Shown: positions 2,874 through 45,958, counted from the stretch's first letter. The stretch: DNA of 64,000 nucleotides from Candidatus Jorgensenbacteria bacterium GW2011_GWB1_50_10 (GCA_001004105.1 LCQK01000001.1:102928-166927); one strand, 5' to 3'. Numbers and translations are program-made. The notes: generated by a model from the letters alone, not told the origin.

Positions 2874-3707
2874 GTGAGACAGCGGGAGGCGGAAATGCTT
2901 CTTCGGAAAATCGCTTTCGCGCTTGCCGCCCTCTCGTTGGGGAGCGGTGAAGCGAAAGCACAAAGCGACGCGGAACTTCTCATTGCCCAGTACGGCTTTT
3001 CTTTTGGTCAGCAGTTCTTGGGCAAGGTAGTTCGCGGCAAAAACATCTGGAAGGCATTCCGGCAGACCTCTTACGAGGCCGTGCCGAGCGCAACTCTCCA
3101 GTACACCGGGATGAAGATGGTTGGGCAGGATTACCGTCTTGCTCTACCGTCTCAACTTCTTATGCAGAAAGGAGCGTGGTTCGGGCGGCAGTCAATTCTC
3201 GGCCGGCCTATTTTCTCGCAAGAAGCGCTCACGTCCTGGGAGCTGGACTATTTCTGGTTCAACTTCCGGCTTCGGGACGGGAAAGTTCTGCCCCCGCGAG
3301 TGAACGTTGCGACAGTGGGAATATCGTTTTACTACGACAACGTTCGTCTTGAGTGGCGGAGATCGCTTGCGACCGGCGTCGTGGTTTTGACGAGCACGAA
3401 TGGCCGGATTGGGAACCGAGTGGGTCAGGCTGGTTCCGGAGTTATTCTGATGCGCAGCCCGCGATACGGGGACTCGTTCAGACACGAACTTGTCCATACG
3501 CACCAGAGTATCCGGGGAAACGCTTTTTCCGACCCGCTTCTTCATCAAGGCGATTCCCAAAGCCGATTCCTGCCTTTCCTGCGGCTGAATCTCGGCAGTC
3601 TTGTAGGCCGAGTGCCAGCAACGCTTCAGGAATTTTTCGGTGAGCCAGCGTATTACAGCCAGCTTCACGAGTGGGAGGCGAGAGCTTACGCCAACTCGCC
3701 GAAGTAG
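2874..3707 (+). CDS. secreted hypothetical protein
   Basis: signal peptide LLRKIAFALAALSLGSGEAKAQS (alternative start 2895); TTGACT-16-TATAGC promoter at 2828-2856; high GC. Confidence 0.6.
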   Translation: MRQREAEMLLRKIAFALAALSLGSGEAKAQSDAELLIAQYGFSFGQQFLGKVVRGKNIWKAFRQTSYEAVPSATLQYTGMKMVGQDYRLALPSQLLMQKGAWFGRQSILGRPIFSQEALTSWELDYFWFNFRLRDGKVLPPRVNVATVGISFYYDNVRLEWRRSLATGVVVLTSTNGRIGNRVGQAGSGVILMRSPRYGDSFRHELVHTHQSIRGNAFSDPLLHQGDSQSRFLPFLRLNLGSLVGRVPATLQEFFGEPAYYSQLHEWEARAYANSPK

Positions 3708-3726
3708 CCCATAGCGAGCGCATCTA

Positions 3727-3768
3727 CGGGCCCGCGGATTCAATTCCCGGGCTCGTTTTTGTTTTTTG
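3727..3768 (+). terminator. rho-independent terminator running into the next promoter
   Basis: GC hairpin (GCCCG...CGGGC) followed by a T run that merges into TTGACA (3766-3771)-17-TACATT. Confidence 0.5.
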
Positions 3769-3848
3769 ACAAAATATTCATATTGTGCTACATTCCTAAT
3801 TAGGACACTTCCAATCTATCGATTGAACGCCTTACCACAGGAGGACTC

Positions 3849-4334
3849 ATGAAGTACCTTGCGGCGCTCTTTGCCGTCGCGACTCTCGCCTGCGGCGAGC
3901 CCGTTTTCTCGCCGGAGACGGAGATGCCTGAGTGGACGTTCGTCATTCAGTTGCTCGAGTACCGGGCTACTGAGCCGATGGTGACGCTCCGCGACGCCGT
4001 GCCGGGCCAGGGCCGCATGACGATGCAGTTCGGGAAGAACCGGACTGTTCTGGCGCGCGGTCCGCTGAACTTTCCCCGTTGGGGGCCGTCGGCCGCCCAC
4101 CCAGTTGGTGAGCCGTACCTGCTCCTTTCGGATGAGGAGTTCGTCGGAACCTACAAGTTCACGACGTCCAATACCCTCGAGATGTCTTTCCCGGAAGCGA
4201 CCGGCGCGAACGCCTGGGTGAACGGCACGTGGTTCTACAACTGGGACCATGTTGACAAGGTGGGCGTAATGCTTTACCACGGCACGTGGCTCCGGGTCAT
4301 TCTGGATCCGGCGGGCGTCACCAGGACGCCGTAG
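3849..4334 (+). CDS. lipoprotein, hypothetical
   Basis: MKYLAALFAVATLAC lipobox (L-A-C); high GC. Confidence 0.65.
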   Translation: MKYLAALFAVATLACGEPVFSPETEMPEWTFVIQLLEYRATEPMVTLRDAVPGQGRMTMQFGKNRTVLARGPLNFPRWGPSAAHPVGEPYLLLSDEEFVGTYKFTTSNTLEMSFPEATGANAWVNGTWFYNWDHVDKVGVMLYHGTWLRVILDPAGVTRTP

Positions 4335-4355
4335 CAAGCAGGGCAGCAGCAAAAA

Positions 4356-4394
4356 GCGAGCTCGAGGTTTCGACCCCGAGCTCGTTTTGTTTTT
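4356..4394 (+). terminator. rho-independent terminator
   Basis: GAGCTCGAGG-tttcgac-CCCGAGCTC hairpin followed by TTTTGTTTTT, then TGATATAAT (4394-4402). Confidence 0.6.
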
Positions 4395-4400
4395 GATATA

Positions 4401-6986
4401 ATGAACTTAATGAGGGTTTTGAAAATCTCTTTGTTTTTGGTTCTTTTTTTGATTTTTTTTTCCGAAGCTTCCGCAGAACCGGCTTTCCCGACGTATTTTG
4501 CGGTCACGCCCCAGTCGGCCTGCGCCATTAATTTAAACTGGGATCAGAGCACTCCAGGCGCTTATTATTTTGAGTATTTTTATTCAACCGATAACTTTGT
4601 AAGAGATTCCACGCCAGGGAGGGTGCCGCCCGTGGGCAACCTGCCGGGCGTGCCGCCGGCGGTAACCGGCAATTTTACGGCGACAACCACCAATTTGTTC
4701 CAGAACACAGAATACTGGTACCGTATAAGGGCCTGTGATTCAACCAGCTGTTCGCAATTTACAACCTCGCCTTCTAAAATCACACCTTCTTTGCCTGGCG
4801 CGCCTTCGGCACCGAACATCAATTCGGTTGCCGCTGTTCAACGCGGCAGAGTCCAGGACGTTGATTTGACCTGGGCGACCTCAACTCAACCGTCGAACTA
4901 CGGCGGTTTCTCCATTTTCCGCTCAACCGACGGCGGCGCACCTCAATTTATTAATTCATTACCTTTTAATAGGAAAAATCCGCCGCCTTTATTTTGGCGC
5001 GACTTGGGACTCTCGCTCGGTTCCTCCTACTCTCATTACGTCATCCAATATGAGAGCGCGATTGGCTGCACGGTTATTCCGTCAAACGTCAGCGGCCCGA
5101 CGACGAGCCCCAATAATCAAGCGGTTTTTTCCGTTCCCTCCAATACCGTTTATGTCCTGCGCGGCCCCACCAATCTGGATGGCTCCTTTAATGATGTGAC
5201 CATCAATTTGACTTGGACCGACAACTCCGGAAACGAAGATAATTTTGGGGTTTGGAAATCAACCGACCCCGCTTTCCCTTCGGTTAATCGCACAGAACTT
5301 TCTTTGCCTGCTAACACCGAGAACTTATCGGACTCGGCTTGGACTGATAATACGACCTACTATTACAAGGTGCGGGCCTGCAAAAGCGGTTCGAGTTGTT
5401 CGGTTTTTTCCAACACTCACGCAGTTTCAACCGGCCTAGCTAATCCGGTTTTGAGCGCGAGCGTGCTTTCCGCTTCCGACACTTCCGGCATCGGCAAGGT
5501 TTATCTTTCTTGGCCAGGCGTTCCGGGTGCTACTTCTTATAAAGCGGAGCGAGCCACCTCCACAGATTTCAGCAATGCCGTGGTTCTTGCAAACCAAAGC
5601 GCCGATTTTTACTACGACCAAAATATTTCTTTAGGTGAAGTTTATTATTATCGCGTGGAGGCCTCCGATGCGGGGGGGCAAACCGCTCGCTCCAATATCG
5701 AGGACGTTCACCTGAATTATCTTTACATTCTGCAAGGCGTGGCCTTCGCGAATGCCGGAGAAGGCGGCATCGGCTGGATTAAATTCAGCTCGGCTGATGA
5801 GAATGGCGTCGCTTCGGCGATTGATTACAACGTTCTCATTGCCAAAGACGGTGTTGTTTCGGGGATGGCCTGGGCTTCAATTGAAAACGGCCGGGGTTAC
5901 GGCTGGCTATCCTTTAGTAAGAGTGATTCAGTAGGATGCCCAGCGACGCCCAGTAATCCAAATTGCGAGGCGCGGTTTTCCACTTCTACCAACGAGTTAT
6001 CCGGCTGGGCGAGATTTTATTACCCGCAGGTGCGGGCCGGAGAATCCAGTTGGGGAGCGGTGGATGCGCCGGGCTGGGTTAGTTTGAAAGGTGTTCCCCA
6101 GTTTGCCGCGCTTGCACCGTTTTCTAAAATAGCTTCTTTGATAGAAGTGACGCCTTTTGCGCCGCTCGCTTCCATTATTAACTTTGCCTCTGCCGCCGGA
6201 ACTCCTTATGGTGTCAGATATAACCCCTCTACCGGTAAATTCTCCGGTCAGGCTTGGGGCGGGAACGTGACGGGCTGGATCGGTTTTAGTGATGCTGAAT
6301 GTGATGCGGATAACAATATTGCCGCGCCGGTCTGCACTGTACGGGTGACAAGCTTCAACCAGTCGCCGACAGTAAGCAACGTCATTATTGAAGGACCGCC
6401 AGAGTCGTGGTGCGCCGCCGACCCGTTTTACCGGGTGCGGTGGGATTACAGCGATCCGGAAAGCGTTAGTCAGCAGGCATTTGACATTCAGTTCATAGAA
6501 CTGGGTGGTGGCACCGCCGCTTTTTCTGAATCGGTAACCGGTTTGGACGGCGGCCAGCAGCTTTATCGGTTGAATGATCCTTTGACCGAACTTGCCGCTC
6601 TCACTACTTACAAAACGAGGGTGCGAGCTTCAGACGGGAACAGTTCTTCCACTTGGAGTGAATCAGCTGCAACGACCACGCCAACTTATTATTACCCGCT
6701 CGTTGATTTCGGCTGGACGCCGATGCCAACTACAACCGGCACCGTTACTACTTTTATGTCTTCGAGCACCGACCGCGGAGGGGGCATCTCTTCGTACGAT
6801 TGGCAATTCCAATTCGGCTCACCTTCCCAGTCCGCTAACCCGGCGCCACAAACCGTTTTCAGCCGGTTGCCTGCCGACGCATCGCTCACGGTAACCGACA
6901 GCGGCAATAACAGTTGTATCGGCACGCGGACCGTGAGCGGGACGGGATCGGGATCCTTGAAGCGCCGCATCTTCCGCGAGAGATAA
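4401..6986 (+). CDS. large secreted cell-surface protein with several fibronectin-III-like repeats
   Basis: 861 aa; N-terminal signal; recurrent FN3-like blocks (YWYRIRACDSTSCSQF, YYYKVRACKSGSSCSVF, YYYRVEASDAGGQ); possible leaderless start at ATG 4410. Confidence 0.75.
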   Translation: MNLMRVLKISLFLVLFLIFFSEASAEPAFPTYFAVTPQSACAINLNWDQSTPGAYYFEYFYSTDNFVRDSTPGRVPPVGNLPGVPPAVTGNFTATTTNLFQNTEYWYRIRACDSTSCSQFTTSPSKITPSLPGAPSAPNINSVAAVQRGRVQDVDLTWATSTQPSNYGGFSIFRSTDGGAPQFINSLPFNRKNPPPLFWRDLGLSLGSSYSHYVIQYESAIGCTVIPSNVSGPTTSPNNQAVFSVPSNTVYVLRGPTNLDGSFNDVTINLTWTDNSGNEDNFGVWKSTDPAFPSVNRTELSLPANTENLSDSAWTDNTTYYYKVRACKSGSSCSVFSNTHAVSTGLANPVLSASVLSASDTSGIGKVYLSWPGVPGATSYKAERATSTDFSNAVVLANQSADFYYDQNISLGEVYYYRVEASDAGGQTARSNIEDVHLNYLYILQGVAFANAGEGGIGWIKFSSADENGVASAIDYNVLIAKDGVVSGMAWASIENGRGYGWLSFSKSDSVGCPATPSNPNCEARFSTSTNELSGWARFYYPQVRAGESSWGAVDAPGWVSLKGVPQFAALAPFSKIASLIEVTPFAPLASIINFASAAGTPYGVRYNPSTGKFSGQAWGGNVTGWIGFSDAECDADNNIAAPVCTVRVTSFNQSPTVSNVIIEGPPESWCAADPFYRVRWDYSDPESVSQQAFDIQFIELGGGTAAFSESVTGLDGGQQLYRLNDPLTELAALTTYKTRVRASDGNSSSTWSESAATTTPTYYYPLVDFGWTPMPTTTGTVTTFMSSSTDRGGGISSYDWQFQFGSPSQSANPAPQTVFSRLPADASLTVTDSGNNSCIGTRTVSGTGSGSLKRRIFRER

Positions 6987-6987
6987 T

Positions 6988-7785
6988 CTATGTCTTTGCG
7001 ATAACAAAGCCGATAATCTTTTTCGCGCCGGCGTTTTTTAGAACGAGCACCGCTTCTTTCATTGTCGCACCCGAAGTAAAAACGTCGTCAACGAGAATGA
7101 CGTTTTGGCCGACAATTGCTTCAGGACGCTTCAGTGAAAACGCGCCGCTGACGTTTTCTTGTCTTTTCTCGTGGTCTTTCATTTTCGTCTGCGATTTGGT
7201 GTTTTTAGTGCGCACGAGATTGTTGGTTTCGATTCCAATTTTACGAGGTTCAACCTCCTCGCGAATTGACGTCAATATTTGGGAGGTTGAACCTCGGGGA
7301 GGTCGGACTTCCAAACATTGACGTAACACCTCCGCAACAAGATACGCCTGGTTGAAACCGCGCTCCCGCTCTTTTTGCGGATGAAGAGGCAGAGGCACAA
7401 CTGCAAAATTTCTAATTTCTAATTTCGAATTTCTAATTACTTTTTCCAGGTACTTATTGATAATTTCTCCGAGCGGTTCAAGAACGGTTTTGGCCCGGTT
7501 GTATTTCAAGGCGTGGATCAGTTCTCTTACCACCCTGTCTTGATAAGAAGCGGCGGCGGCGAGGACGAATTTCACTCGCGGATGGCAGAGATTTTGGTTC
7601 TTAGGCAGGCTGTCTCGGGCAGGCAGGCGCCGGTTGCATTCCGGGCAAAAAAAGGAGTTGTTGATTTCGATTCGGGCGGCGCATTCATCGCAGAGCGCTT
7701 TTTCTCCCCGCCGGAGGCAATTCACGCAAATCGGCGGGAAAATAACGTCAAGAAACAAATTCCATATTTTTTGAAGCGTCTCCAT
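6988..7785 (-). CDS. comF: ComF-family competence protein (double zinc ribbon + phosphoribosyltransferase domain)
   Basis: CVNCLRRGEKALCDEC...CPECNRR zinc ribbons; C-terminal PRTase motif NVILVDDVFTSGAT; carries a ~60 aa internal insertion encoded by palindromic DNA. Confidence 0.8.
   Translation of the reverse strand: METLQKIWNLFLDVIFPPICVNCLRRGEKALCDECAARIEINNSFFCPECNRRLPARDSLPKNQNLCHPRVKFVLAAAASYQDRVVRELIHALKYNRAKTVLEPLGEIINKYLEKVIRNSKLEIRNFAVVPLPLHPQKERERGFNQAYLVAEVLRQCLEVRPPRGSTSQILTSIREEVEPRKIGIETNNLVRTKNTKSQTKMKDHEKRQENVSGAFSLKRPEAIVGQNVILVDDVFTSGATMKEAVLVLKNAGAKKIIGFVIAKT
7245..7312. repeat. palindromic mini-element (paired GGAGGTT(C)GAACCTCC hairpins) inside the comF CDS
   Basis: GAGGTTCAACCTCC 7245-7258 and GGAGGTTGAACCTC 7283-7296 plus a partial third arm; same family as 18755-18805 in ligA. 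Confidence 0.6.
7408..7435. repeat. heptanucleotide tandem repeat (TTTCTAA)x4 within comF
   Basis: tttctaa tttctaa tttcgaa tttctaa seen directly; encodes ...KLEIRNSKLEIRNF... Confidence 0.6.
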
Positions 7786-7821
7786 TCAATAAAGTTTAAT
7801 CTGTGTTAAAATGATAATACC

Positions 7822-8919
7822 ATGCGCCTCGGTTTTCTGGATTTTTTCCGCGACATTGCGAATTTCGTGAAAAGCGGTTCGGTTTTGGGAATCGATATCG
7901 GCACCGTTTCCGTGAAGATCGCCGAAGTCGGCAAGCGGGGAGAACGCTTCCGGCTTTTAAACTATGGAGTTTTGGAAACTAAGAGATATTTTGAACGGCC
8001 GAACGAGGCTATCCAGACAAGTTCCCTGAAACTCTCGGAGGCAGCCGCGACCGAACTCGTGAAAACTCTTCTTCGGGAAACAGGGACGAAAACGAGAACG
8101 GCCGTTTGTTCCATTCCGGCTTTTTCGGCGTTCGTCGCTCCCTTGGAAATGCCGTTCCTCTCTCCTGCGGAAACGGCGAGAACCGTCGGTTTTGAAGCGC
8201 GGCAATACATTCCTCTTCCCGTGAGCGAGGTTTCCATTGACTGGCTCAAGGTTGACGAGTTTGATTCTCCGCAGGGCGGCCGAAGCCAGCGGCTACTCCT
8301 TATCGGTATTCCTAACGAAACAATCAGAAAGTATAAAAACATTTTCAAAAATTGCGGCCTGCGGCTCGTCGCGCTGGAGCTGGAAACTTTTTCCTTGATA
8401 AGAGCACTGGGGCGGTTTTCTTCTCCCACGCTTGTCGTCGACATCGGCGCCGAGTCCACCGCGATTGCCGTCGCGGAGGCAGGGGTTTTGAAACACGTGA
8501 GCCAGACTGACTACGGCGGCATCCATCTTACGGCTGCCTTGAGTAAAAGTTTGGGCGTGAGCGTGAAGAGGGCGGAGGAGTTAAAACGCCGAAGAGGACT
8601 TCTCGCAACGGGCGGCGAATCGGAGTTATCAACATTAATCGTTCCTTTTTTGGATGTTATAATACAAGAGGTGAGGTACGCGCAGGATTCGTACGAGCGC
8701 CGCTGGGCTAAAAAAGTTGCCGGATTGACGCTCGTGGGCGGCGGTTCGGAACTTTTGGGCATTGAAAAATACCTTGAGCGCCAGATGGGATTGCCCTGCA
8801 CCTCGCCCGATGTTTTCGGCGACGTCGATTACGATGCCTCCGCGGAACCACTTCGGAGAAATCTTTCCCGGGTTTTGCCGGTTGCCGTGGGTCTTGCCAA
8901 AAAGTATTTCCAAAATTGA
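7822..8919 (+). CDS. pilM: type IV pilus assembly ATPase-fold protein PilM
   Basis: actin-like GIDIGTVSVKIAEV N-terminus, 365 aa, first gene of a pilMNO-pilB-pilT-pilC array. Confidence 0.8.
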   Translation: MRLGFLDFFRDIANFVKSGSVLGIDIGTVSVKIAEVGKRGERFRLLNYGVLETKRYFERPNEAIQTSSLKLSEAAATELVKTLLRETGTKTRTAVCSIPAFSAFVAPLEMPFLSPAETARTVGFEARQYIPLPVSEVSIDWLKVDEFDSPQGGRSQRLLLIGIPNETIRKYKNIFKNCGLRLVALELETFSLIRALGRFSSPTLVVDIGAESTAIAVAEAGVLKHVSQTDYGGIHLTAALSKSLGVSVKRAEELKRRRGLLATGGESELSTLIVPFLDVIIQEVRYAQDSYERRWAKKVAGLTLVGGGSELLGIEKYLERQMGLPCTSPDVFGDVDYDASAEPLRRNLSRVLPVAVGLAKKYFQN

Positions 8920-37808: not shown

Positions 37809-37857
37809 TTGTCCATTTTGAAAATTTGAGGCAGCAGAACAAAATTGGTTATTGGAA

Positions 37858-37873
37858 CAATTCGCGCGAATTG
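37858..37873. promoter_or_regulatory. perfect 16 bp palindrome CAATTCGCGCGAATTG (operator copy 1)
   Basis: at -40 to -25 relative to TGGTATAAT (37882-37890) of the ArsR-like gene; identical 24-mer at 38238-38261. Confidence 0.6.
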
Positions 37874-37902
37874 GCGAAAGATGGTATAATGAGTTCAAGA
37901 AT

Positions 37903-38166
37903 ATGAAACGGTGGACGATTGTTTTTAAGGCGTTATCTAATGTCAATCGGCTCAAAATCATAAGACTTTTGTCAAAAGGCGGCGCTTTGAATGTCGGCGG
38001 CATTGCCGAGGAACTCAATATTTCGCCGAAAGCCACCTCCAAGCATTTGATAATTCTTCATAACTTGGACGTTCTGGAAAGCGTAGGGAAAGAAGGTCAC
38101 GTTTTGTATTCGCTGAACACGAAAATGCCGCGGGATTTTCGCAGAGTTTTGGGGAACTTTAATTAA
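37903..38166 (+). CDS. ArsR/SmtB-family transcriptional regulator
   Basis: HTH SNVNRLKIIRLLSKGGALNVGGIAEELNISPKATSKHLIILHNL; start ATG 37903 just after the extended -10. Confidence 0.7.
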   Translation: MKRWTIVFKALSNVNRLKIIRLLSKGGALNVGGIAEELNISPKATSKHLIILHNLDVLESVGKEGHVLYSLNTKMPRDFRRVLGNFN

Positions 38167-38240
38167 GCAGTTTGCCCGGGGCGCGCTCCTTATCCTATCC
38201 TAACCTTGTCTTACCTTTCTTACTCTAAGGCCTTAGGGAA

Positions 38241-38256
38241 CAATTCGCGCGAATTG
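38241..38256. promoter_or_regulatory. CAATTCGCGCGAATTG palindrome (operator copy 2)
   Basis: identical to 37858-37873 with 4 bp of flank each side. Confidence 0.6.
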
Positions 38257-38339
38257 GCGAATGGTTGGTGAATGGGGAAGGGGCAAATTGTCCGTTTCTC
38301 GAAAATGAGGCAGAATGAGGGGATAAATTAGTTATCGTA

Positions 38340-38366
38340 TGATAACCATTGACAAATTGGTTATCA
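38340..38366. promoter_or_regulatory. inverted repeat TGATAACCA-N9-TGGTTATCA spanning a TTGACA hexamer (candidate TA operator)
   Basis: seen directly; the P3 promoter module lies at 38288-38316. Confidence 0.5.
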
Positions 38367-38384
38367 GTTATATTCTTTGTATAT

Positions 38385-38639
38385 ATGGATAAAAAACTCT
38401 TGTCGACGAGTGAAGCCGCAAAAATTTTAGGTATCAGCCGGGTAGCGGTATTGAAGAGAATTAAAAAGAATCAGCTTAAAGCCAGGAAGGTTGGGAAGAA
38501 TTATGTCATTGCTAAAGAAGATCTGCCGATTGAGGCAGGGGGTGAAATCACCGAAATTAAGAAAAAACTAATTGATGCAGCCATAAAAAAAGCATTAACC
38601 GACTATCGGGAAACTCTGGAATTGTTGGGGAAAGAATAA
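38385..38639 (+). CDS. HTH (excisionase/MerR-type) DNA-binding protein, probable antitoxin of Doc
   Basis: LSTSEAAKILGISRVAVLKRIKKNQL HTH; 12 nt upstream of doc. Confidence 0.6.
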   Translation: MDKKLLSTSEAAKILGISRVAVLKRIKKNQLKARKVGKNYVIAKEDLPIEAGGEITEIKKKLIDAAIKKALTDYRETLELLGKE

Positions 38640-38650
38640 ATTGATCGTTT

Positions 38651-39067
38651 ATGCAGCAGCTTTCAATAACAGAGGTTGAGTATGTTGCTCATCGTTTGGC
38701 AAAAGCATGGTTAAGCTGGGATGAGCCGATTCCCGATTTCGACACAAGATTCCCAAACATTTTAGAAAGCTGTATTGCCACCCCATTCCAATCGTTTGGC
38801 AAAAAAGCGGCCTACTCCGGCCTTATCGGCAAGGGGGCGATTTTGTTTTACTTGATGATTAAAAATCATCCTTTCCGTAACGGGAATAAAAGGATCGCCG
38901 TGACTACTCTTCTGGTTTTTCTGTATAAAAACAAAAAATGGCTCCGTGTTGATGAACGCGAATTTTACAATTTTGCCAAGTGGGTCGCGGAGAGCAGCCC
39001 CAAGTTTAGGATTGAAACTATTGCCGCCATTTCAAAATTCATAAAGACGTATATGATAAAAATATGA
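38651..39067 (+). CDS. doc: Doc/Fic-family toxin
   Basis: Fic/Doc motif HPFRNGNKRIAVTT (HxFx(D/N)GNKR). Confidence 0.75.
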   Translation: MQQLSITEVEYVAHRLAKAWLSWDEPIPDFDTRFPNILESCIATPFQSFGKKAAYSGLIGKGAILFYLMIKNHPFRNGNKRIAVTTLLVFLYKNKKWLRVDEREFYNFAKWVAESSPKFRIETIAAISKFIKTYMIKI

Positions 39068-39161
39068 AAATAAAATATTTGTTTGTCCAAAAAGGCCGGA
39101 AGTTGATAGTAAAGGATTGGAGAAGGTAGGCTAAGGTTATTAAGGTAAATCCTTGACTTTT

Positions 39162-39191
39162 TTGATACGATTTGCTAAATTAGCATAAAAT
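39162..39191 (+). promoter_or_regulatory. promoter TTGATA-N17-TAAAAT with palindrome TGCTAAATTAGCA in the spacer
   Basis: palindrome 39173-39185 directly upstream of abiEi. Confidence 0.5.
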
Positions 39192-39200
39192 ACTAACTTT

Positions 39201-39788
39201 ATGAAATGGATAGATTTTGAGCGAAAAATAAAAGCAAAGAACATCAAGCTTTTTACCCCCCTCGACGTGCAAAAATTTTTAGGGAGAACGAAAATAGCCA
39301 CGCGTTTTTTAATCCACCGTTTGAAAAAGAACGGGTATATTGTGAGCGTAAAACGCGGCTTGTATCAATTGTCCGATGAACAAATCCCCGATGTATATGT
39401 CGCTAACAGGATTTACGCCCCCTCATATGTATCTTTGGAATTCGCGCTGTCATACTACGGCGTTATTCCCGAGACGGTGTATGAAATTACCTCGGTGACG
39501 ACAAAAACCACCCGTCGGTTCGAAACGCTTGGCAAGATTTTTTCTTATCACAAGATAAAAAAGACGGCCTACACCGGCTACGCCATTCACAGTCAGAACG
39601 GGATGCGTTTCTATATCGCCGATGCCGAAAAAGCGTTCGTTGATGCAAGCTACTTGCGCCTGATGCGGAAACAAAAGCCGATTTCCCGTTTTCGCAAAGA
39701 AAAAATCAATCGCGCCAAGTCGTTAAAATACGCTTCGCTCTTCAATAATGAAAAACTTACCAGCATCATTAAAACAACGCTCCAATGA
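39201..39788 (+). CDS. abiEi: AbiEi-family antitoxin/transcriptional regulator
   Basis: 195 aa N-terminal wHTH-like; ATGA overlap with the downstream DUF1814 nucleotidyltransferase. Confidence 0.6.
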   Translation: MKWIDFERKIKAKNIKLFTPLDVQKFLGRTKIATRFLIHRLKKNGYIVSVKRGLYQLSDEQIPDVYVANRIYAPSYVSLEFALSYYGVIPETVYEITSVTTKTTRRFETLGKIFSYHKIKKTAYTGYAIHSQNGMRFYIADAEKAFVDASYLRLMRKQKPISRFRKEKINRAKSLKYASLFNNEKLTSIIKTTLQ

Positions 39789-40546
39789 TTTCGGTGGAAT
39801 CGCTTGAAAAATTGAGCAGGCGGTATCAAGCAGGAATATTTCCCAATATAATCAGGGAATATTTTCAGCATGTTTTTCTGGGAGAGTTGTATAAGATGGA
39901 AGGCGCGGAGAAAATGCTCTTTAAAGGAGGCACCGCCTTGCGGATTGTGTATGGCAGTCCGCGTTTTTCCGAGGACTTGGATTTTTCCTTGTTCGGTGTC
40001 GCGCAGAACGAGCTGAAATCTTTCATTGAAGGGGTTTTTGCGCGGGTTCTGGCGGAGATAGAGCACGTCGGCATAAAAGTCGAACTTGGAGAAAAAATCG
40101 GCCCTACGCGCGGGGGATATTTCGGCGTCGCGACATTCCGCATGCTTGAATATCCGCCAGTTGCCGTGGAGATAAACGTGTCGGCGCGCAACGGCAGGGA
40201 CATGCGGGGAGAAATAGACAGCGTCGCGGGCGATTTTGTGCCGACTTACACCGTCGTTCACTTGCCGCAGAACGAGCTTGTGGAAGAAAAAATTTTCAGC
40301 GCGCTCCGCGAGCGCAAGAAACCGCGCGATTTCTACGATCTTTATTTCATCATGCGCAAAGCGATGCTCTCGCCTGATCAGAAAAAACGGCTGGCCGGAA
40401 TAAAGGAAGAAATAACCGCAGCCGCGGGACGCGTTGATTTTCGCGGCGAGTTGGGCGCCCTCCTGCCGGTGGACCAGCAGCCGGTTATCCGCGATTTCCC
40501 GGCCATGCTTGAACGCGAGCTTAATAGGCAGTTAAGTGGAATATGA
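39785..40546 (+). CDS. abiEii: AbiEii/AbiGii-family nucleotidyltransferase toxin
   Basis: KGGTALRIVYGSPRFSEDLDF motif typical of DUF1814/AbiEii. Confidence 0.75.
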   Translation: MISVESLEKLSRRYQAGIFPNIIREYFQHVFLGELYKMEGAEKMLFKGGTALRIVYGSPRFSEDLDFSLFGVAQNELKSFIEGVFARVLAEIEHVGIKVELGEKIGPTRGGYFGVATFRMLEYPPVAVEINVSARNGRDMRGEIDSVAGDFVPTYTVVHLPQNELVEEKIFSALRERKKPRDFYDLYFIMRKAMLSPDQKKRLAGIKEEITAAAGRVDFRGELGALLPVDQQPVIRDFPAMLERELNRQLSGI

Positions 40547-40636
40547 AAACAAGAGATCTGCCGAAAGGCCGGAAGTTGATAGTAAAGGATTGGAGGAATT
40601 AGAAAACCGCCGAAAAGGCGGTTTTCTAATTGTAAA

Positions 40637-40665
40637 TTGAGCATTTTGAAAATTTGAGGCAGAAT
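40637..40665 (+). promoter_or_regulatory. island promoter module TTGAGC-17-CAGAAT (leaderless to ATG 40672)
   Basis: spacer ATTTTGAAAATTTGAGG identical to 37436-37452. Confidence 0.5.
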
Positions 40666-40671
40666 GAGGGT

Positions 40672-41373
40672 ATGAGTAATAATCCATTGCAAAAATTTAA
40701 TGATCTTCTGGAGAAGGTGGATTTAGTTGGTTATCGCAAGAGGTATCAACCAATCAAGATAGTAGAAATGGACTTACCCAAAGAAATTCAAGCAGTAAGC
40801 CTTCTCTACGAAATTTACTGGGATAAAAAGATGTTCGTCAATTTTGATGAATTTTACCGAATATATTTAAAGCTTTACAAGCATAAATTAGAAGAATTCA
40901 GGAAAAACAAAGCCTTTATGTGCAAAAACTGTTTTTATAGAGGCTTAGAGGCAAGGATTTATAGAACATGGGCGAGTATTATTACACAGATTCACGCAGC
41001 TTATGTTGCTGAATCAGTTTTTGTTAGTGGCACCGTTAGGATGTCAGAAGCCCTAGATCGAGCCGGCGCTGATTTCCAAGTCCAATATAAGAAAAAAACA
41101 TTAAATTATCAGGTTAAAAAAATCTCTTTTAGTAGAGAGGTTAGGAAAGAAAAACCTAAATCTAAGCAACCACTGGAAGGCGAATTTTTCGATATAACTT
41201 ACGACGTTCCTAGTGATAGCTATTTTAGAAATCCGAAGAGGAAAAACGGAAAATACAGATTGCCTTATTTAAGATTTAAAGAAAATAAAAATCTAAAACG
41301 ACTACCTAACGGCTTTGTTGTATTCACGCCGCTGATTTTTGAGGAAAAAAAGAAGGAGATAGATGCAATTTAG
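40672..41373 (+). CDS. hypothetical protein, candidate restriction endonuclease partner of the LexA-MTase fusion
   Basis: 233 aa; convergent with the methylase, 4 bp overlap at the 3' ends; no confident nuclease motif; call rests on context only. Confidence 0.3.
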   Translation: MSNNPLQKFNDLLEKVDLVGYRKRYQPIKIVEMDLPKEIQAVSLLYEIYWDKKMFVNFDEFYRIYLKLYKHKLEEFRKNKAFMCKNCFYRGLEARIYRTWASIITQIHAAYVAESVFVSGTVRMSEALDRAGADFQVQYKKKTLNYQVKKISFSREVRKEKPKSKQPLEGEFFDITYDVPSDSYFRNPKRKNGKYRLPYLRFKENKNLKRLPNGFVVFTPLIFEEKKKEIDAI

Positions 41374-42896
41374 ATTAAATTTGGTGTTGTTTTAACTTTA
41401 TTAAGCCATTTTTCAGCCAAATTTACATAATCTGGGTTTATTTCGAAGCCAATGTAATTTTGGTCTAATTCTTTTACTGCCACACATTCTGAACCGCTGC
41501 CAACAAACGGTATTAATATAACTCCTTCTTTTTCGGGAGCAGATGATTTAATAAGTTTTCTTGTTAATTCAAGAGGTTTTTGGGTGGGGTGTTTTATTAC
41601 ATTGTGTTTTGAATGCTCTTGTAGTTTTTGCGGTTCAAAAACATCGTTACAGGTTTTACATAAAAACCATCTTTCAACCATTCCTGCGCCGCCGGCTAGT
41701 GCCGCCGTTTTTATGACGTCTCTCGGTAAAGCGCCATTCTTGTGGAATTTATAAATCGTTTCTTTGCCGTTTTTACTGAATCTTCCAGGCGTACCTTTTC
41801 TTATTTTTCCCGCGGCGCCATTTAAAAATCCCTCTGTATATGGTTCTCTCACCTCGTCTTTGTTGAAAATTGGCTTGTTTTTCCAAGCGCAAACTATGGC
41901 TTCATGGCTCCTTTGCCAAAAATTTAAAGAAGCCACGTTTTTGTTAGTGTAATGCCAAATTAGCCAACGCTTATTTATAGGTATTTCTACAGATAAATAA
42001 GCTAAAATTTCACTAAAACCGTAGATAAAAAGCGTTGCAGTTGGTTTCATAACTCTTACACTTTCATTTATCCAACTTTTGCACCAATTAACATATTCAT
42101 TTAATTCTCTCTTATCGGTATTATTGCCAAAATCTTTCCCGATGTTATAGGGTGGATCAACAATAATCACATCACAGCTGTTATCCGGTAACTTTCTTAA
42201 CTCTTCCACTGCATCCCCGCAGATAATTTGATTAAGAGGTAAACGCTTATATTTTCTATCTACAGTTGGGCGTTGTAGAGATATTTCCTGGAAACCCTTT
42301 TCCGGGCTCTTGATTACATCTAAGACAACCCCTTGTATTGCGAATTCCCTATTCTTTCTAACAATTATCGGTTCAAAGTTTTTATTTGCCGGTTGGAGGC
42401 GGATTTGATTTCTTTCCTTGTAAAAAGTTTTTAAAGTTGTCTCGTAGTTGTCTATTAGCGCCACGATTTTCTGACCATTCTCTGCAAACCCCTGTTGTTT
42501 GACTAATATAATATCTCCGTCGAGGATGTTTTCTTCAATCATGCTCTCACCAGCAACACGCAGGGCATAAACTTCTCCGTTTTTCGGGATTTTGGTCTGG
42601 GGGACAGCGATTGTTTCTTTTGTGCCTTCGTATGTCTCCACTGGCCGGCCGGCAGCGATAGTTCCAAGTAGCGGAATTTGGACCATTGGTTCTATTTCGC
42701 GTACGGAGAGAGAACGTGCCCGTCCCGGGAGTTTTTCTAGACGGCCGGCGCCGCGAAGGTTTTGAAGGTGTTCGTGAATGGTAGAAACTGACCTCCTAAA
42801 ATGGCGCGCCATCTCTTCTATAGAGGGTGGCACATCGTGTTTGGAGGAGTATTCCCTCATAAAGCGGATAATCTGTTCTTGACGTAGGGTTGGCAT
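41370..42896 (-). CDS. fusion protein: LexA-type repressor (wHTH + Ala-Gly site + S24 Ser/Lys autopeptidase) joined to a beta-class N6A/N4C DNA methyltransferase
   Basis: N-terminus QIIRFMREY...EEMARHFRRSVSTIHEHLQNLRGAG; cleavage site GTIAAGRP; VAGESMIEENILDGDIILV and TTLKTFYKE; then CDVIIVDPPYNIG (motif IV) and LIPFVGSGSECVAV (motif I) at the C-terminus. Confidence 0.8.
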   Translation of the reverse strand: MPTLRQEQIIRFMREYSSKHDVPPSIEEMARHFRRSVSTIHEHLQNLRGAGRLEKLPGRARSLSVREIEPMVQIPLLGTIAAGRPVETYEGTKETIAVPQTKIPKNGEVYALRVAGESMIEENILDGDIILVKQQGFAENGQKIVALIDNYETTLKTFYKERNQIRLQPANKNFEPIIVRKNREFAIQGVVLDVIKSPEKGFQEISLQRPTVDRKYKRLPLNQIICGDAVEELRKLPDNSCDVIIVDPPYNIGKDFGNNTDKRELNEYVNWCKSWINESVRVMKPTATLFIYGFSEILAYLSVEIPINKRWLIWHYTNKNVASLNFWQRSHEAIVCAWKNKPIFNKDEVREPYTEGFLNGAAGKIRKGTPGRFSKNGKETIYKFHKNGALPRDVIKTAALAGGAGMVERWFLCKTCNDVFEPQKLQEHSKHNVIKHPTQKPLELTRKLIKSSAPEKEGVILIPFVGSGSECVAVKELDQNYIGFEINPDYVNLAEKWLNKVKTTPNLI

Positions 42897-42918
42897 ATTG
42901 ATTTTCGGGTTTTTTTCG

Positions 42919-42935
42919 GTTATAATTATTATAAC
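42919..42935. promoter_or_regulatory. perfect palindrome GTTATAAT-n-ATTATAAC (candidate LexA-like operator) over the -10 region of the fusion gene
   Basis: 8 bp arms, 23-39 nt upstream of start codon 42896 on the minus strand; contains two TATAAT hexamers. Confidence 0.6.
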
Positions 42936-42999
42936 AATCCACTAAGCCCAAAATCACGGGGCACTGTGGATAAAAAGGTCGTAAAATTAAAGGAAAAAC

Positions 43000-43290
43000 A
43001 TGACTAAAAGAGGAAAAATCGGACAGGCTAGGCATGACGCAAAAGTTCAGCAACGTTTGGATCTTTATAAGGATAAAGGTTTTAGGGTTAAAGCTGATTT
43101 GCCGGGTCGAGCTAAACCTCAAAAAATTGGTGGTAGGATCCCCGATATTATAGCTAAAAAGGGTAAAAAGTTGGTTGTTGAAGAAGTCGAAACTCGCTCA
43201 ACCAAAGATACTGATAAAACACAGCAAGAAGCCCTTAGAAAAGGCACGAAGGAACGCGGTGGTACTTTCAAGGTAATTGTGGCTAAATAG
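43000..43290 (+). CDS. hypothetical basic protein (possible degenerate PD-(D/E)xK fold)
   Basis: RIPDIIAKKGKKLVVEEVETR resembles the PD...ExK block of the next gene; weak. Confidence 0.4.
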   Translation: MTKRGKIGQARHDAKVQQRLDLYKDKGFRVKADLPGRAKPQKIGGRIPDIIAKKGKKLVVEEVETRSTKDTDKTQQEALRKGTKERGGTFKVIVAK

Positions 43291-43299
43291 TTATAAGAT

Positions 43300-43518
43300 A
43301 TGAATATTAAAACATGTATCGCCTGTGGCGGTATCATCATTTCGTTGTCAATATCTACTTGCGAAAAGTGTTTGCTGGCATTACCTCCTGACTTGCCGAG
43401 TGTTGATCATTCCACAACAACGTCAACCTCGACACGTACAATTTTCGTTTCCGGAGCTACTGGCTCAACCGCAGTTTCTATTTCAGCTACAACCACTCAA
43501 CCACCCAATCTCGGTTAA
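43300..43518 (+). CDS. small hypothetical protein (CxxC...CxxC N-terminus, Ser/Thr-rich tail)
   Basis: ORF only; AT-rich. Confidence 0.3.
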   Translation: MNIKTCIACGGIIISLSISTCEKCLLALPPDLPSVDHSTTTSTSTRTIFVSGATGSTAVSISATTTQPPNLG

Positions 43519-43558
43519 TAACTAACCCGCCGCGGTCCGGAGGAGTATAAATATAAAA

Positions 43559-44056
43559 ATGAACCCCGAATCAATGTTAAAAGGCCGGATGGCCGAAACG
43601 TTATTTGAAGAACTGATACGGCAGTCGGGGAATATTGTTTATCGTTTCGGATATGAAGCGATTGTTCAAAATTTGACGCAACTTGAAGAAAAATTTGACA
43701 GATATAGCGAGGTAGGTGAAAGAATCCGGGCTATTCCGGATTTTATTGTTATAGATAAAGCCGGCAAGCCGGAGTTTGTTGAGGTAAAATTCCGATGGAA
43801 GCCAGAACTTCACGAAGACGATTACAAAAAATTGGAAAAGATAGAAAAGTTATGGAGCCCAAAAATAGTTTTTGTAAACTGCTGGGAGCAGCCGTATTTC
43901 AGAATTTCAGAGCCACCTTATGTTAAAAACAAGAAACTAGTCACAAAAACCCTTTTAGATGAAAAGAATTGGAAAATTGATAAGGAACTTTATGATGAGT
44001 ACGAAAGTTTAGTTCATCGTTATTTAACGCCAACGCTTGTACCGCCAAAAAATTAG
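43559..44056 (+). CDS. PD-(D/E)xK nuclease-fold protein
   Basis: IPDFIVIDKAGKPEFVEVKF (PD-x9-ExK); 165 aa. Confidence 0.55.
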   Translation: MNPESMLKGRMAETLFEELIRQSGNIVYRFGYEAIVQNLTQLEEKFDRYSEVGERIRAIPDFIVIDKAGKPEFVEVKFRWKPELHEDDYKKLEKIEKLWSPKIVFVNCWEQPYFRISEPPYVKNKKLVTKTLLDEKNWKIDKELYDEYESLVHRYLTPTLVPPKN

Positions 44057-44143
44057 GAGAGTAGAGATTAGCTGATAGGTTGTAGATGATAGGTGATAGT
44101 TAACAATTAACGGCTGATGACAAATTAGGAGAATAGATTTATA
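44041..44143. repeat. boundary repeat copy A (83 nt identical to 45390-45472) carrying a 53 bp insert flanked by 18-19 bp direct repeats
   Basis: ccgccaaaaaattaggagagtag core; ATTAGGAGAGTAGAGATTA (44052-44070) and ATTAGGAGAATAGATTTA (44124-44141) flank gctgatagg...gctgatgacaa. Confidence 0.65.
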
Positions 44144-45500: not shown

Positions 45501-45683
45501 ATGGTGAGAATTGCACAGGAAAAGAGCGATACGAGACTTCGGGCGGAAATGGCTCAAGTAGCAGCTGAGGTTCTTAAGGACCCCGATTTCGGAAGGAAAT
45601 TAAGCCCGGAGGCCAAAAAACGCCTTTTGTCTGTATCCGAAAAAGATTTATCAAAAGCCGTTTCTTTATCTGAAATTAAGTAA
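45501..45683 (+). CDS. probable antitoxin (small helical protein) of the RelE/ParE pair
   Basis: 60 aa; 14 nt upstream of the toxin gene. Confidence 0.45.
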   Translation: MVRIAQEKSDTRLRAEMAQVAAEVLKDPDFGRKLSPEAKKRLLSVSEKDLSKAVSLSEIK

Positions 45684-45697
45684 ACCCCAGCCGTTTT

Positions 45698-45958
45698 ATG
45701 GATTGGGTTGTTAAGCTAACGGAAGACGCGCAGAAAGACCTCAACACCTTGGATGGTAAGGTGCGGGGGCGGATTTTGGAAAAGCTGAAATGGATTAGTG
45801 AAAACTTTGATGATATTACACCTCTACCTCTTACGGGGGAGTTTACGGGTTTTTATAAATTACGGGTAGGCGATTGGCGGGTATTTTACAAAGTTGATTG
45901 GGCGGCACATATTATTTTCGCTGTGTATATCGGGCATCGAGATTCTGCTTATAGATAG
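45698..45958 (+). CDS. RelE/ParE-family type II toxin
   Basis: KLRVGDWRVFYKVDW...IIFAVYIGHR, typical RelE/ParE C-terminal half. Confidence 0.7.
   Translation: MDWVVKLTEDAQKDLNTLDGKVRGRILEKLKWISENFDDITPLPLTGEFTGFYKLRVGDWRVFYKVDWAAHIIFAVYIGHRDSAYR

Follow-up and report, generated by a model that had tools for sequence, protein, structure and literature searches.

LexA, as described in Escherichia coli and Thermotoga maritima, is a stand-alone protein of ~200 amino acids (aa) with a winged helix-turn-helix (HTH) domain, an Ala-Gly bond, a Ser-Lys dyad and a dimerising S24 fold. We analysed a 64,000-nucleotide (nt) stretch of DNA from Candidatus Jorgensenbacteria bacterium GW2011_GWB1_50_10 (GCA_001004105.1 LCQK01000001.1:102928-166927; hereafter the window, with positions counted from its first letter) and found a gene whose product has all of these elements, but in which a methyltransferase of 300 aa follows the LexA part. 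The gene adjoins a TaqI-family endonuclease gene, and the two form a restriction-modification (R-M) pair, as the initial annotation of the locus had proposed. The fusion further differs from known LexA in that its candidate operator is found, within the window, at its own promoter only, and in that it is part of a mobile R-M module and shows no sign of a connection with a DNA-repair regulon.

Among R-M systems, the closest functional analogues are those of the EcoRII/SsoII type, in which a C5 methylase carries a short HTH region and is not known to have a protease domain or a cleavage site. The window locus resembles them in having an N-terminal DNA-binding domain and an operator (here predicted) that overlaps the gene's own promoter, and differs from them in having a complete LexA of the self-cleaving type, convergent genes and, among its relatives, any class of methylase as partner. 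Autorepression through an N-terminal HTH is known for M.EcoRII, M.SsoII/M.Ecl18kI and M.ScrFI, and in Ecl18kI the R and M genes are divergent with a common control region (PMC3874152). For the operator, the nearest described element is the direct-repeat LexA box of Alphaproteobacteria, GTTC-N7-GTTC (PMC8565304).

Domain composition of the fusion protein

The module comprises the following elements:

41370..42896, minus strand: LexA-methyltransferase fusion gene (open reading frame (ORF), Pfam, NCBIfam and solved-structure matches)
42687..42896, minus strand: LexA-type winged HTH, residues 1-70 (Pfam LexA_DNA_bind)
42648..42653, minus strand: Ala82-Gly83 codons, predicted self-cleavage bond (IAAG motif), invariant in relatives
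42306..42674, minus strand: S24 autopeptidase and dimerisation domain, residues 75-197 (Pfam Peptidase_S24)
41373..42230, minus strand: beta-class amino-methyltransferase, residues 223-508 (Pfam N6_N4_Mtase, 1.6e-38)
40672..41373, plus strand: TaqI-family Type II endonuclease gene, with an in-frame TTG at 40654 (Pfam RE_TaqI)

The fusion ORF encodes 508 aa plus a stop codon. Its residues ~1-200 had been read as LexA and the rest as a methylase, and profile searches matched all three expected domains: LexA_DNA_bind (PF01726) at residues 3-61 (5e-11), Peptidase_S24 (PF00717) at residues 75-191 (4e-29) and N6_N4_Mtase at residues 242-496 (1.6e-38). The protein also scores 167.5 bits against the NCBIfam lexA equivalog model TIGR00498 (cutoff 110.95; model positions 5-200 of 203), and residues 3-197 can be aligned without large gaps to T. 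maritima LexA (3k2z, 4e-31) and to E. coli LexA structures. The motifs of the autopeptidase are where they had been reported, with the AAG cleavage site at A82-G83 and a catalytic dyad of Ser118 (in GESM; codon 42543-42545) and Lys156 (in TLKTFYKE). The recognition helix reads S36-V-S-T-I-H-E42-H-L, in which we take E42 to be the equivalent of E. coli LexA E45, from a hand alignment to the E. coli sequence. An AlphaFold2 model built on a 25-sequence alignment had a mean predicted local distance difference test (pLDDT) score of 55 and a predicted template modelling (pTM) score of 0.34, with the winged HTH alone being confident, and no structural argument is drawn from it.

In the C-terminal part, DPPY (motif IV, residues 247-250) precedes FVGSGS (motif I, residues 464-469), which is the beta-class order and confirms the class assigned at the outset. 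The nearest solved structures are M.BceJIV (GTWWAC, N6-adenine), M.MboIIA, M.RsrI and CcrM. In this respect the locus departs from the TaqI R-M system, with which it shares the RE_TaqI endonuclease family and, in related loci, the depletion of TCGA described below: M.TaqI is a gamma-class enzyme with a TaqI_C domain. Between its motifs the methylase has an insertion with an invariant Cys2-His3 pattern (C413, C416, H428, H431 and H436; CxxC...HxxH....H), which could be a zinc site. A giant-virus-like homologue of the methylase (locus L159, 5049-6059) is without this insertion and, on reading its sequence, has an N-terminal SAP-like segment in place of LexA.

Distribution and conservation of the fusion

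In a similarity search of 5.8 billion proteins, all of the 120 best matches are the same three-domain protein (500-524 aa), from independent NCBI, JGI, ENA and Logan assemblies; identity to the window fusion is 66-71%, except in one entry, from Candidatus Jorgensenbacteria GW2011_GWC1_48_8, that is 100% identical. A scan of one genome per species found a relative encoded in 181 of 185,579 genomes, nearly all of them Patescibacteria (candidate phyla radiation, CPR), together with a few short contigs in bins labelled as other groups.

Conservation was measured over 79 full-length copies from 80 related loci (L001-L080). A82, G83, S118, K156, DPPY, F464, G466 and G468 are invariant in 79/79 copies, and position 469 of motif I varies (S in 66, A in 11 and T in 2). 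Pairwise identity averages 54% in the winged HTH, 70% in the S24 domain and 80% in the methylase, so that the winged HTH is the most variable domain, down to 21% identity in some pairs. Judging from these alignments, the self-cleavage machinery is under purifying selection.

The ORF is continuous in 79/80 loci and the 25-residue linker between the domains is kept throughout. That a lexA gene and a methylase gene might have been joined artificially, by an assembly error or a frameshift, a possibility raised with the initial annotation, is thus ruled out for practical purposes: the same 500-524-aa ORF comes from independent assemblies, the linker is retained, and we found nothing in support of an artefact, to which we attach a negligible probability.

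Homologues of the methylase domain are also present in viral contigs (80 loci, L096-L175, from IMG/VR including giant-virus bins), where they are unfused and 50-57% identical to the window methylase; two viral loci match from residue 105 (42% identity). Among the 80 viral loci kept, none has the LexA fusion, giving no evidence for a phage-borne form.

Endonuclease partner and C protein

The partner ORF (233 aa from the ATG at 40672, or 239 aa from 40654) matches Pfam RE_TaqI with an E-value of 1.8e-34 over profile positions 1-218 of 229; no solved structure matched the endonuclease, even at E = 1. The two genes are convergent and their 3' ends share 4 bp, in agreement with the geometry first reported. 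This pairing is kept across the family: a TaqI-like gene (50-68% identity) lies convergent and directly 3' of the fusion gene in 68 of the 80 related loci. About 11 loci are without the TaqI-like gene and have in its position other convergent ORFs, of ~205 or 220 aa, with no Pfam match, and the closest relative of the window methylase (L084, 71% identity) likewise has a convergent 218-aa ORF with no Pfam match. By eye, the alternative 217-aa ORF of L002 and a convergent 236-aa ORF of the viral locus L159 have an SSYRLT motif in common. No flanking gene other than the TaqI-like endonuclease is conserved in the 80 related loci.

Many R-M systems are controlled by C proteins, and the initial annotation had LexA replacing such a controller. 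A tblastn search with the relatives' C protein found no C gene in the window, so the claim agrees with this one copy, which has either lost its C gene or never had one. As a general statement it fails, since ~27 related loci have a 72-aa HTH_3 C-protein gene directly upstream of the endonuclease (a classic C-R operon) alongside the LexA fusion; the fusion therefore does not generally replace the C protein.

Transfer RNA (tRNA) or transfer-messenger RNA (tmRNA) genes adjoin the endonuclease side in at least 11 loci, as would be expected if the module inserts at tRNA-type hotspots. They include tRNAs of various identities and one tmRNA, located ~10-180 bp from the endonuclease start (L010, L012, L016, L018, L036 and L040, and likewise L043, L046, L053, L077 and L031).

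A candidate tandem operator that co-varies with the recognition helix

The control region of the fusion gene contains these elements:

42903..42919, plus strand: tandem units TTTCGGG-TTTT-TTTCGG (TTTC-N7-TTTC, 11-bp period), from co-variation and position
42898..42926, plus strand: best sigma-70-like promoter of the region, TTGATT-17-TATAAT (10/12 matches)
42919..42935, no strand: perfect 17-bp palindrome GTTATAAT-T-ATTATAAC, with two opposed TATAAT hexamers
42947..42953, minus strand: degenerate third unit CCCAAAA (+) / TTTTGGG (-), next to a GTGATT -35-like hexamer (sequence reading)

In the window the tandem units lie downstream of the -10 hexamer of the fusion gene and before its ATG; their orientation is inverted with respect to the gene, and they fall within the spacer of the opposite-strand promoter. 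They are the sole match with fewer than two mismatches in the 64 kb, and matches with two mismatches occur at chance level; this uniqueness argues for a private autoregulator and not a global one. The upstream regions of the relatives have a common promoter, TTGAYT-17-TATAMT, in whose spacer there are two direct repeats with a strict 11-bp period. Tandem pairs are present in 76 of 79 upstream regions, compared with 3.7% of random 150-nt windows from the same loci.

The repeat unit has the form NTTCxy, where xy tracks residue 42 of the recognition helix (the counts below ignore shared ancestry):

Residue 42 F or H, or Y after Ala: TTCTA, exact core repeat in 53/58 F/Y/H loci (of the remaining 5, 4 are without an exact repeat and 1 is in the Y-after-Val class)
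Residue 42 E or Q: TTCGG, or the related CTCGG or TTAGG, exact in 13/20 loci and related in the rest
Residue 42 Y after Val: TTCGA, in L065 and L093
Residue 42 K: TTC(A/G)C, in L095

No locus, among the 79 related loci and the other fusions, combines F/Y/H with TTCGG or E/Q with TTCTA. The pairings repeat in four independent fusions that were read afterwards, and the pairing also holds in a stand-alone LexA operon:

L081, C5 fusion: helix residue Q, pairing holds
L094, D12 fusion: helix residue Q, pairing holds
L093, Eco57I-type fusion: Y after Val, pairing holds
L064 module 1, second N6_N4 family: helix residue H, pairing holds
L176, stand-alone LexA-DpnI operon: helix residue Q, pairing holds

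The units in the window are like the alphaproteobacterial box in their direct orientation, 11-bp period and TTC core, and the literal GTTC-N7-GTTC is found in the relatives L030, L056, L095 and L176. They differ from that box in that the two bases after TTC vary by lineage and track one helix residue, in that the units are in, or abut, the regulator's own promoter, and in that extra inverted copies are common.

The initial annotation had instead taken the 17-bp palindrome, which does lie at 42919-42935 over the -10 region, for the operator; on this reading a symmetric dimer of the LexA domain would bind it. LexA boxes are mostly palindromic, the palindrome is perfect and spans both -10 hexamers (plus strand, 42921-42926; minus strand, 42928-42933), and L064 module 1 (GCTATAAT-A-ATTATAGC), L016, L066, L081 and L176 have comparable palindromes with the -10 at their centre. 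Unlike the tandem units, however, the arms and their spacing do not visibly follow the recognition helix as they vary among relatives, and many family loci have no palindrome with arms of at least 6 bp. Two opposed TATAAT hexamers also make a palindrome automatically. Perfect palindromes with 8-bp arms are not rare in the window (16, compared with a mean of 6.3 in Markov simulations), so that it is the position of this palindrome, and not its existence, that gives it meaning; no further close copy of it was found in the window. We therefore think it improbable that the palindrome is the LexA-domain operator, and regard it as promoter architecture, possibly a competing promoter pair, and not as the primary operator, although it may still have a part in binding. 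What stands of the earlier claim is that an operator-like element overlaps the promoter of the fusion gene, and the best-supported candidate is the tandem repeat at 42903-42919.

The minus-strand TATAAT is preceded by TGT, making it an extended -10, and is likely to be the promoter of the fusion gene; if so, the tandem units would occupy about +2 to +18 of the transcript. The plus-strand promoter, with its TTGATT at 42898-42903, has a function predicted from its hexamers; it is directed away from the fusion gene, toward a divergent 96-aa gene, and has the tandem units in its spacer. In most of L001-L080 the motif AAGTCAA is found 3-8 nt before the fusion start codon (AATCAA at 42897-42903 in the window). 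Because AAGTCAA is the reverse complement of a -35 sequence, TTGACTT, the control region forms one long, imperfect palindrome and may contain a reverse promoter. Before the fusion ATG there is no evident Shine-Dalgarno sequence, and ~15 loci look leaderless, with the -10 at 6-8 nt before the ATG.

LexA modules fused to other methylases or standing alone

We also searched the LexA half alone against 1.8 billion cluster representatives. Among the best 75 matches, ~45 are proteins of 330-841 aa with an N-terminal LexA, and stand-alone LexA proteins (~200 aa) are among the more distant matches. All 44 fusions that were scanned have LexA_DNA_bind and Peptidase_S24, with the Ala-Gly, Ser and Lys invariant in 44/44. 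Their C-terminal families are as follows (the counts overlap, as some proteins match several related Pfam families):

N6_N4_Mtase: 31 proteins
Eco57I: 6 proteins
D12: 5 proteins
N6_Mtase: 4 proteins
MmeI-type: 3 proteins
C5 DNA_methylase: 2 proteins

LexA modules are thus fused to at least five further DNA-methylase families beyond that of the window. Six further contexts were read; in five the fusion lies with a Type II endonuclease of recognisable family, and in the sixth the end of the contig truncates a convergent ORF. The partners include:

L064 module 1: MvaI/BcnI-family endonuclease and C protein
L093: AccI-family endonuclease and C protein
L094: AlwI-family endonuclease
L095: BsoBI-family endonuclease
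L084 (methylase family of the window): the convergent 218-aa ORF, no Pfam match
L081 (C5 fusion): convergent ORF of no recognised family

The locus L064 has two complete LexA-methylase/endonuclease/C-protein modules in tandem (2916-5732 and 6001-8429), of which one has an SPPY-type methylase with the MvaI/BcnI endonuclease and the other belongs to the window's family, with a TaqI-like endonuclease. The two differ in their helices (HHH versus HEH) and in their units (TTCTA versus TTCGG), as would be expected if divergence in specificity prevents cross-talk between co-resident modules.

Unfused versions exist as well. In L086, a 211-aa LexA gene ends one base before a Type I-like methylase gene. 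In L176 (1125-2551; also in L177), a stand-alone 213-aa LexA, 57% identical to the LexA half of the window protein and of the same clade, directly precedes a gene for a DpnI-family methyl-dependent endonuclease, and its cassette comprises GTTC-N7-GTTC, a -10 palindrome and two TTATCCACA boxes.

The last of these elements is found in the window too:

42965..42973, plus strand: perfect DnaA-box 9-mer TGTGGATAA (TTATCCACA on the minus strand), exact match

TTATCCACA is the DnaA-box consensus. The 9-mer, of which the window has no second exact copy, lies ~48 bp before the position at which the fusion transcript is predicted to start. The related loci contain 77 copies in 784 kb where 6 are expected (a thirteen-fold excess), with ~58 just upstream of the fusion gene. 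At 38-82 nt upstream of the ATG, the 9-mer is exact in 58/79 loci and has one mismatch in 13 more (71/79, compared with a background of 0.3%). It accompanies LexA modules of any helix type and methylase family (L084, L094 and L176 among them), and in L084 and L176 two copies flank the promoter. We considered TGTGGATAA as the R-M target or as the operator of the LexA module, and rejected both since it is unchanged with different helices and methylase families. Its sequence suggests a possible input from the replication initiator DnaA into the conserved cassette.

Taking these cases together, we propose tentatively, with slightly less confidence than doubt, that in Patescibacteria a dedicated clade of self-cleaving LexA paralogues serves restriction systems as a portable control cassette. 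Such a cassette would combine the DnaA-box-like 9-mer and a promoter bearing tandem NTTC-N7-NTTC operators with the LexA module, which is either fused to a methylase, with all the major classes represented (beta and other N6/N4, Dam-like D12, gamma Eco57I/TaqI-like or C5) or placed just upstream of methylase or DpnI-type genes.

Proposed model and alternative explanations

The explanation that we favour, and hold to be probable with some reserve, is that the locus is a horizontally acquired Type II R-M module in which a LexA-fused, autorepressing methylase is derepressed by cleavage triggered by activated RecA. Its direct support comes from the architecture, its conservation, the pairing with an endonuclease, the co-variation of operator and helix, and the invariant cleavage machinery. 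In this model, the LexA winged HTH would bind the tandem TTTC-N7-TTTC units overlapping the promoter region (42903-42919), by which the methylase would repress its own gene; the opposite-strand promoter facing the 96-aa gene would probably be repressed too. DNA breaks, for example from self-restriction of under-methylated DNA, would give rise to filaments of RecA on single-stranded DNA, upon which the S24 domain would cut Ala82-Gly83. Cleavage would release the 9-kDa DNA-binding domain, derepress the promoter and yield more methylase, the outcome being a damage-sensing homeostatic feedback through which modification stays ahead of restriction. The model predicts that the fusion binds DNA, represses its own gene and depends on RecA, that cleavage shifts methylase activity in the direction given here, and that the target is TCGA. 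The methylase is a beta-class enzyme of the N6-adenine type (DPPY), with TCGA as the probable target.

Several points weigh against this model. Binding, cleavage and methylation by the fusion protein are predicted from sequence, and the S24-methylase fragment might not stay active after cleavage but be degraded, in which case the outcome would be the opposite; the cleavage fragments of E. coli LexA are degraded. No RecA signature was matched within the 64-kb window, and the source genome is assumed to have RecA. The co-variation is uncorrected for phylogeny, and hence a single ancestral state may lie behind many of the F/TTCTA loci. LexA forms symmetric dimers, whereas the units of the candidate operator are direct repeats. 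Of the 76 relatives with a tandem pair, 71 have their units in the opposite orientation and upstream of the -10; with the window units inverted and downstream of it, the module here may be regulated in another way or its control may have partly decayed. In L084, the closest relative, a pair of units stands on either side of the -10, so the window has probably kept the gene-proximal pair only and lost the other; the degenerate unit at 42947-42953 is probably a remnant of the upstream pair. We also considered the promoter cassette as an invertible switch, given the inverted units, and found this unnecessary because unit pairs flank the -10 in L084 and the loss of one pair suffices.

The target deserves similar caution. 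Of all 4-bp palindromes, TCGA shows the strongest depletion in the related loci (observed/expected 0.43), and it ranks third in the window (0.57). This depletion and the endonuclease family are no more than suggestive of TCGA as the R-M target. As proof of specificity the depletion was set aside as weak: it is equal in loci without and with the TaqI-like gene (0.44 versus 0.42), all comparison loci being methylase-bearing, and the R-M module itself is not depleted in TCGA.

The same structural evidence would also fit a suicide switch, in which cleavage stimulated by activated RecA exposes degrons, the S24-methylase fragment is destroyed, methylation lapses and the stable endonuclease kills the cell, making the module a damage-triggered addiction or altruistic-death (abortive-infection-like) system for damaged or infected cells. 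R-M systems do kill by post-segregational restriction and induce the SOS response (PMC3874152), the genomic island around the module also holds AbiE and Fic/Doc toxin systems, and the stand-alone LexA of the same clade heads a DpnI-family operon without a methylase, in which derepression would raise the nuclease. Derepression would, however, also remake the methylase and counter the loss of methylation, and we judge this explanation unlikely. Lower still is our estimate for a LexA module that is a DNA-binding and dimerising autorepressor only, of the SsoII/EcoRII kind, with self-cleavage having no physiological role. Autorepression of a methylase through an N-terminal HTH needs no protease (PMC3874152), and a dimerising domain could be useful in itself to a beta-class methylase, since enzymes such as M.BceJIV engage two DNA sites simultaneously; but the Ala-Gly, Ser and Lys are invariant in 79/79 and 44/44 proteins beside an HTH with a mean identity of only 54%, which is hard to explain without catalysis.

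One might also see the fusion as the organism's general SOS repressor, its only LexA, which would control a DNA-repair regulon. It scores above the lexA equivalog cutoff, NCBI names its homologues 'transcriptional repressor LexA', and a second LexA was not found within the window. We nonetheless consider this very unlikely, for the operator pair is unique in 64 kb, the distribution is patchy (181/185,579 species genomes), the gene lies in a low-GC island here and beside tRNA genes elsewhere, and the stand-alone ~200-aa LexA proteins are more distant matches. The two fusions of L064, which differ in helix, unit and methylase, and the switches of specificity between close relatives also argue against a general role.

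Genomic setting of the module

The module lies within a stretch of 41% guanine-cytosine (GC) content (38-44 kb) amid DNA of ~50% GC, flanked by ordinary chromosomal genes, e.g. pyrF and tRNAs. The features of this setting are:

38000-44100, no strand: low-GC defence island (GC 41% versus ~50%)
38349-39067, no strand given: HTH_17 gene and Fic/Doc gene (Pfam)
39201-40546, no strand given: AbiEi/AbiEii pair (Pfam)
43000..43290, plus strand: 96-aa AHJR-like (PD-(D/E)xK-fold) gene, divergent from the fusion gene (Pfam 2.3e-5, below the curated cutoff)
43559-44056, no strand given: 165-aa ORF of no family, in the defence island

The AHJR-like family comprises 32 clusters, and its members adjoin LexA/S24 genes near methylases in all three of the other contexts examined. 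In L086 the 96-aa gene (4001-4291) is the last gene of an operon, after lexA, the Type I-like methylase, an RnlA-like gene and an S subunit; in L090 the AHJR-like gene (5001-5303) is divergent from a 485-aa LexA-N6_N4 fusion; and in L091/L092 it comes after an S24 gene and a GIY-YIG gene (L091, 5001-5300), beside an MmeI-like methylase. The 96-aa AHJR-like protein of the window may be an accessory nuclease under the control of the LexA module.

Two features were observed at the edges of this region. The 16-bp palindrome CAATTCGCGCGAATTG occurs twice (37858-37873 and 38241-38256), once at the start of an ArsR-family HTH_5 gene (37852-38166) and once shortly beyond its end, and is probably the operator of that regulator. 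At 45501-45958 there is a small gene pair which, on a reading of the sequence with no profile search, resembles an antitoxin and a RelE/ParE-type toxin.

Novelty and significance

We found no description of a LexA-methylase fusion in full-text literature searches or in the main review of R-M regulation (PMC3874152), in keeping with the initial view of the architecture as uncharacterised. It is nevertheless widespread in public sequence data, where databases hold thousands of copies under automatic names ('transcriptional repressor LexA', 'site-specific DNA-methyltransferase'). The parts are all known (LexA, R-M systems, autoregulating methylases and direct-repeat boxes), and it is their combination and its reuse across methylase classes that appear to be undescribed. 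The name 'transcriptional repressor LexA' hides R-M systems and inflates LexA counts in these genomes.

A central problem of R-M systems is to keep modification ahead of restriction, which known systems solve by means of C proteins, simple-HTH methylases, promoter methylation or antisense RNA. If the proposed model is true, a LexA-bearing methylase would be a further solution, with a feedback that reads failed protection itself (breaks sensed via activated RecA), and LexA would have been taken up repeatedly to serve mobile defence genes as their own regulator instead of governing DNA repair. The apparent one-residue code (E/Q with TTCGG, F/H with TTCTA, and others) constitutes a natural variant series for LexA-DNA specificity. 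The findings are of interest for the fields of R-M regulation, the SOS response and CPR biology; Patescibacteria are mostly uncultured, and small two-gene modules such as these are testable directly in E. coli. If the tentative reading of a portable cassette is also true, a single helix residue would be a readable specificity code that prevents cross-talk of co-resident cassettes, and R-M in the reduced genomes of Patescibacteria would be wired to RecA-sensed DNA damage and possibly to the replication initiator.

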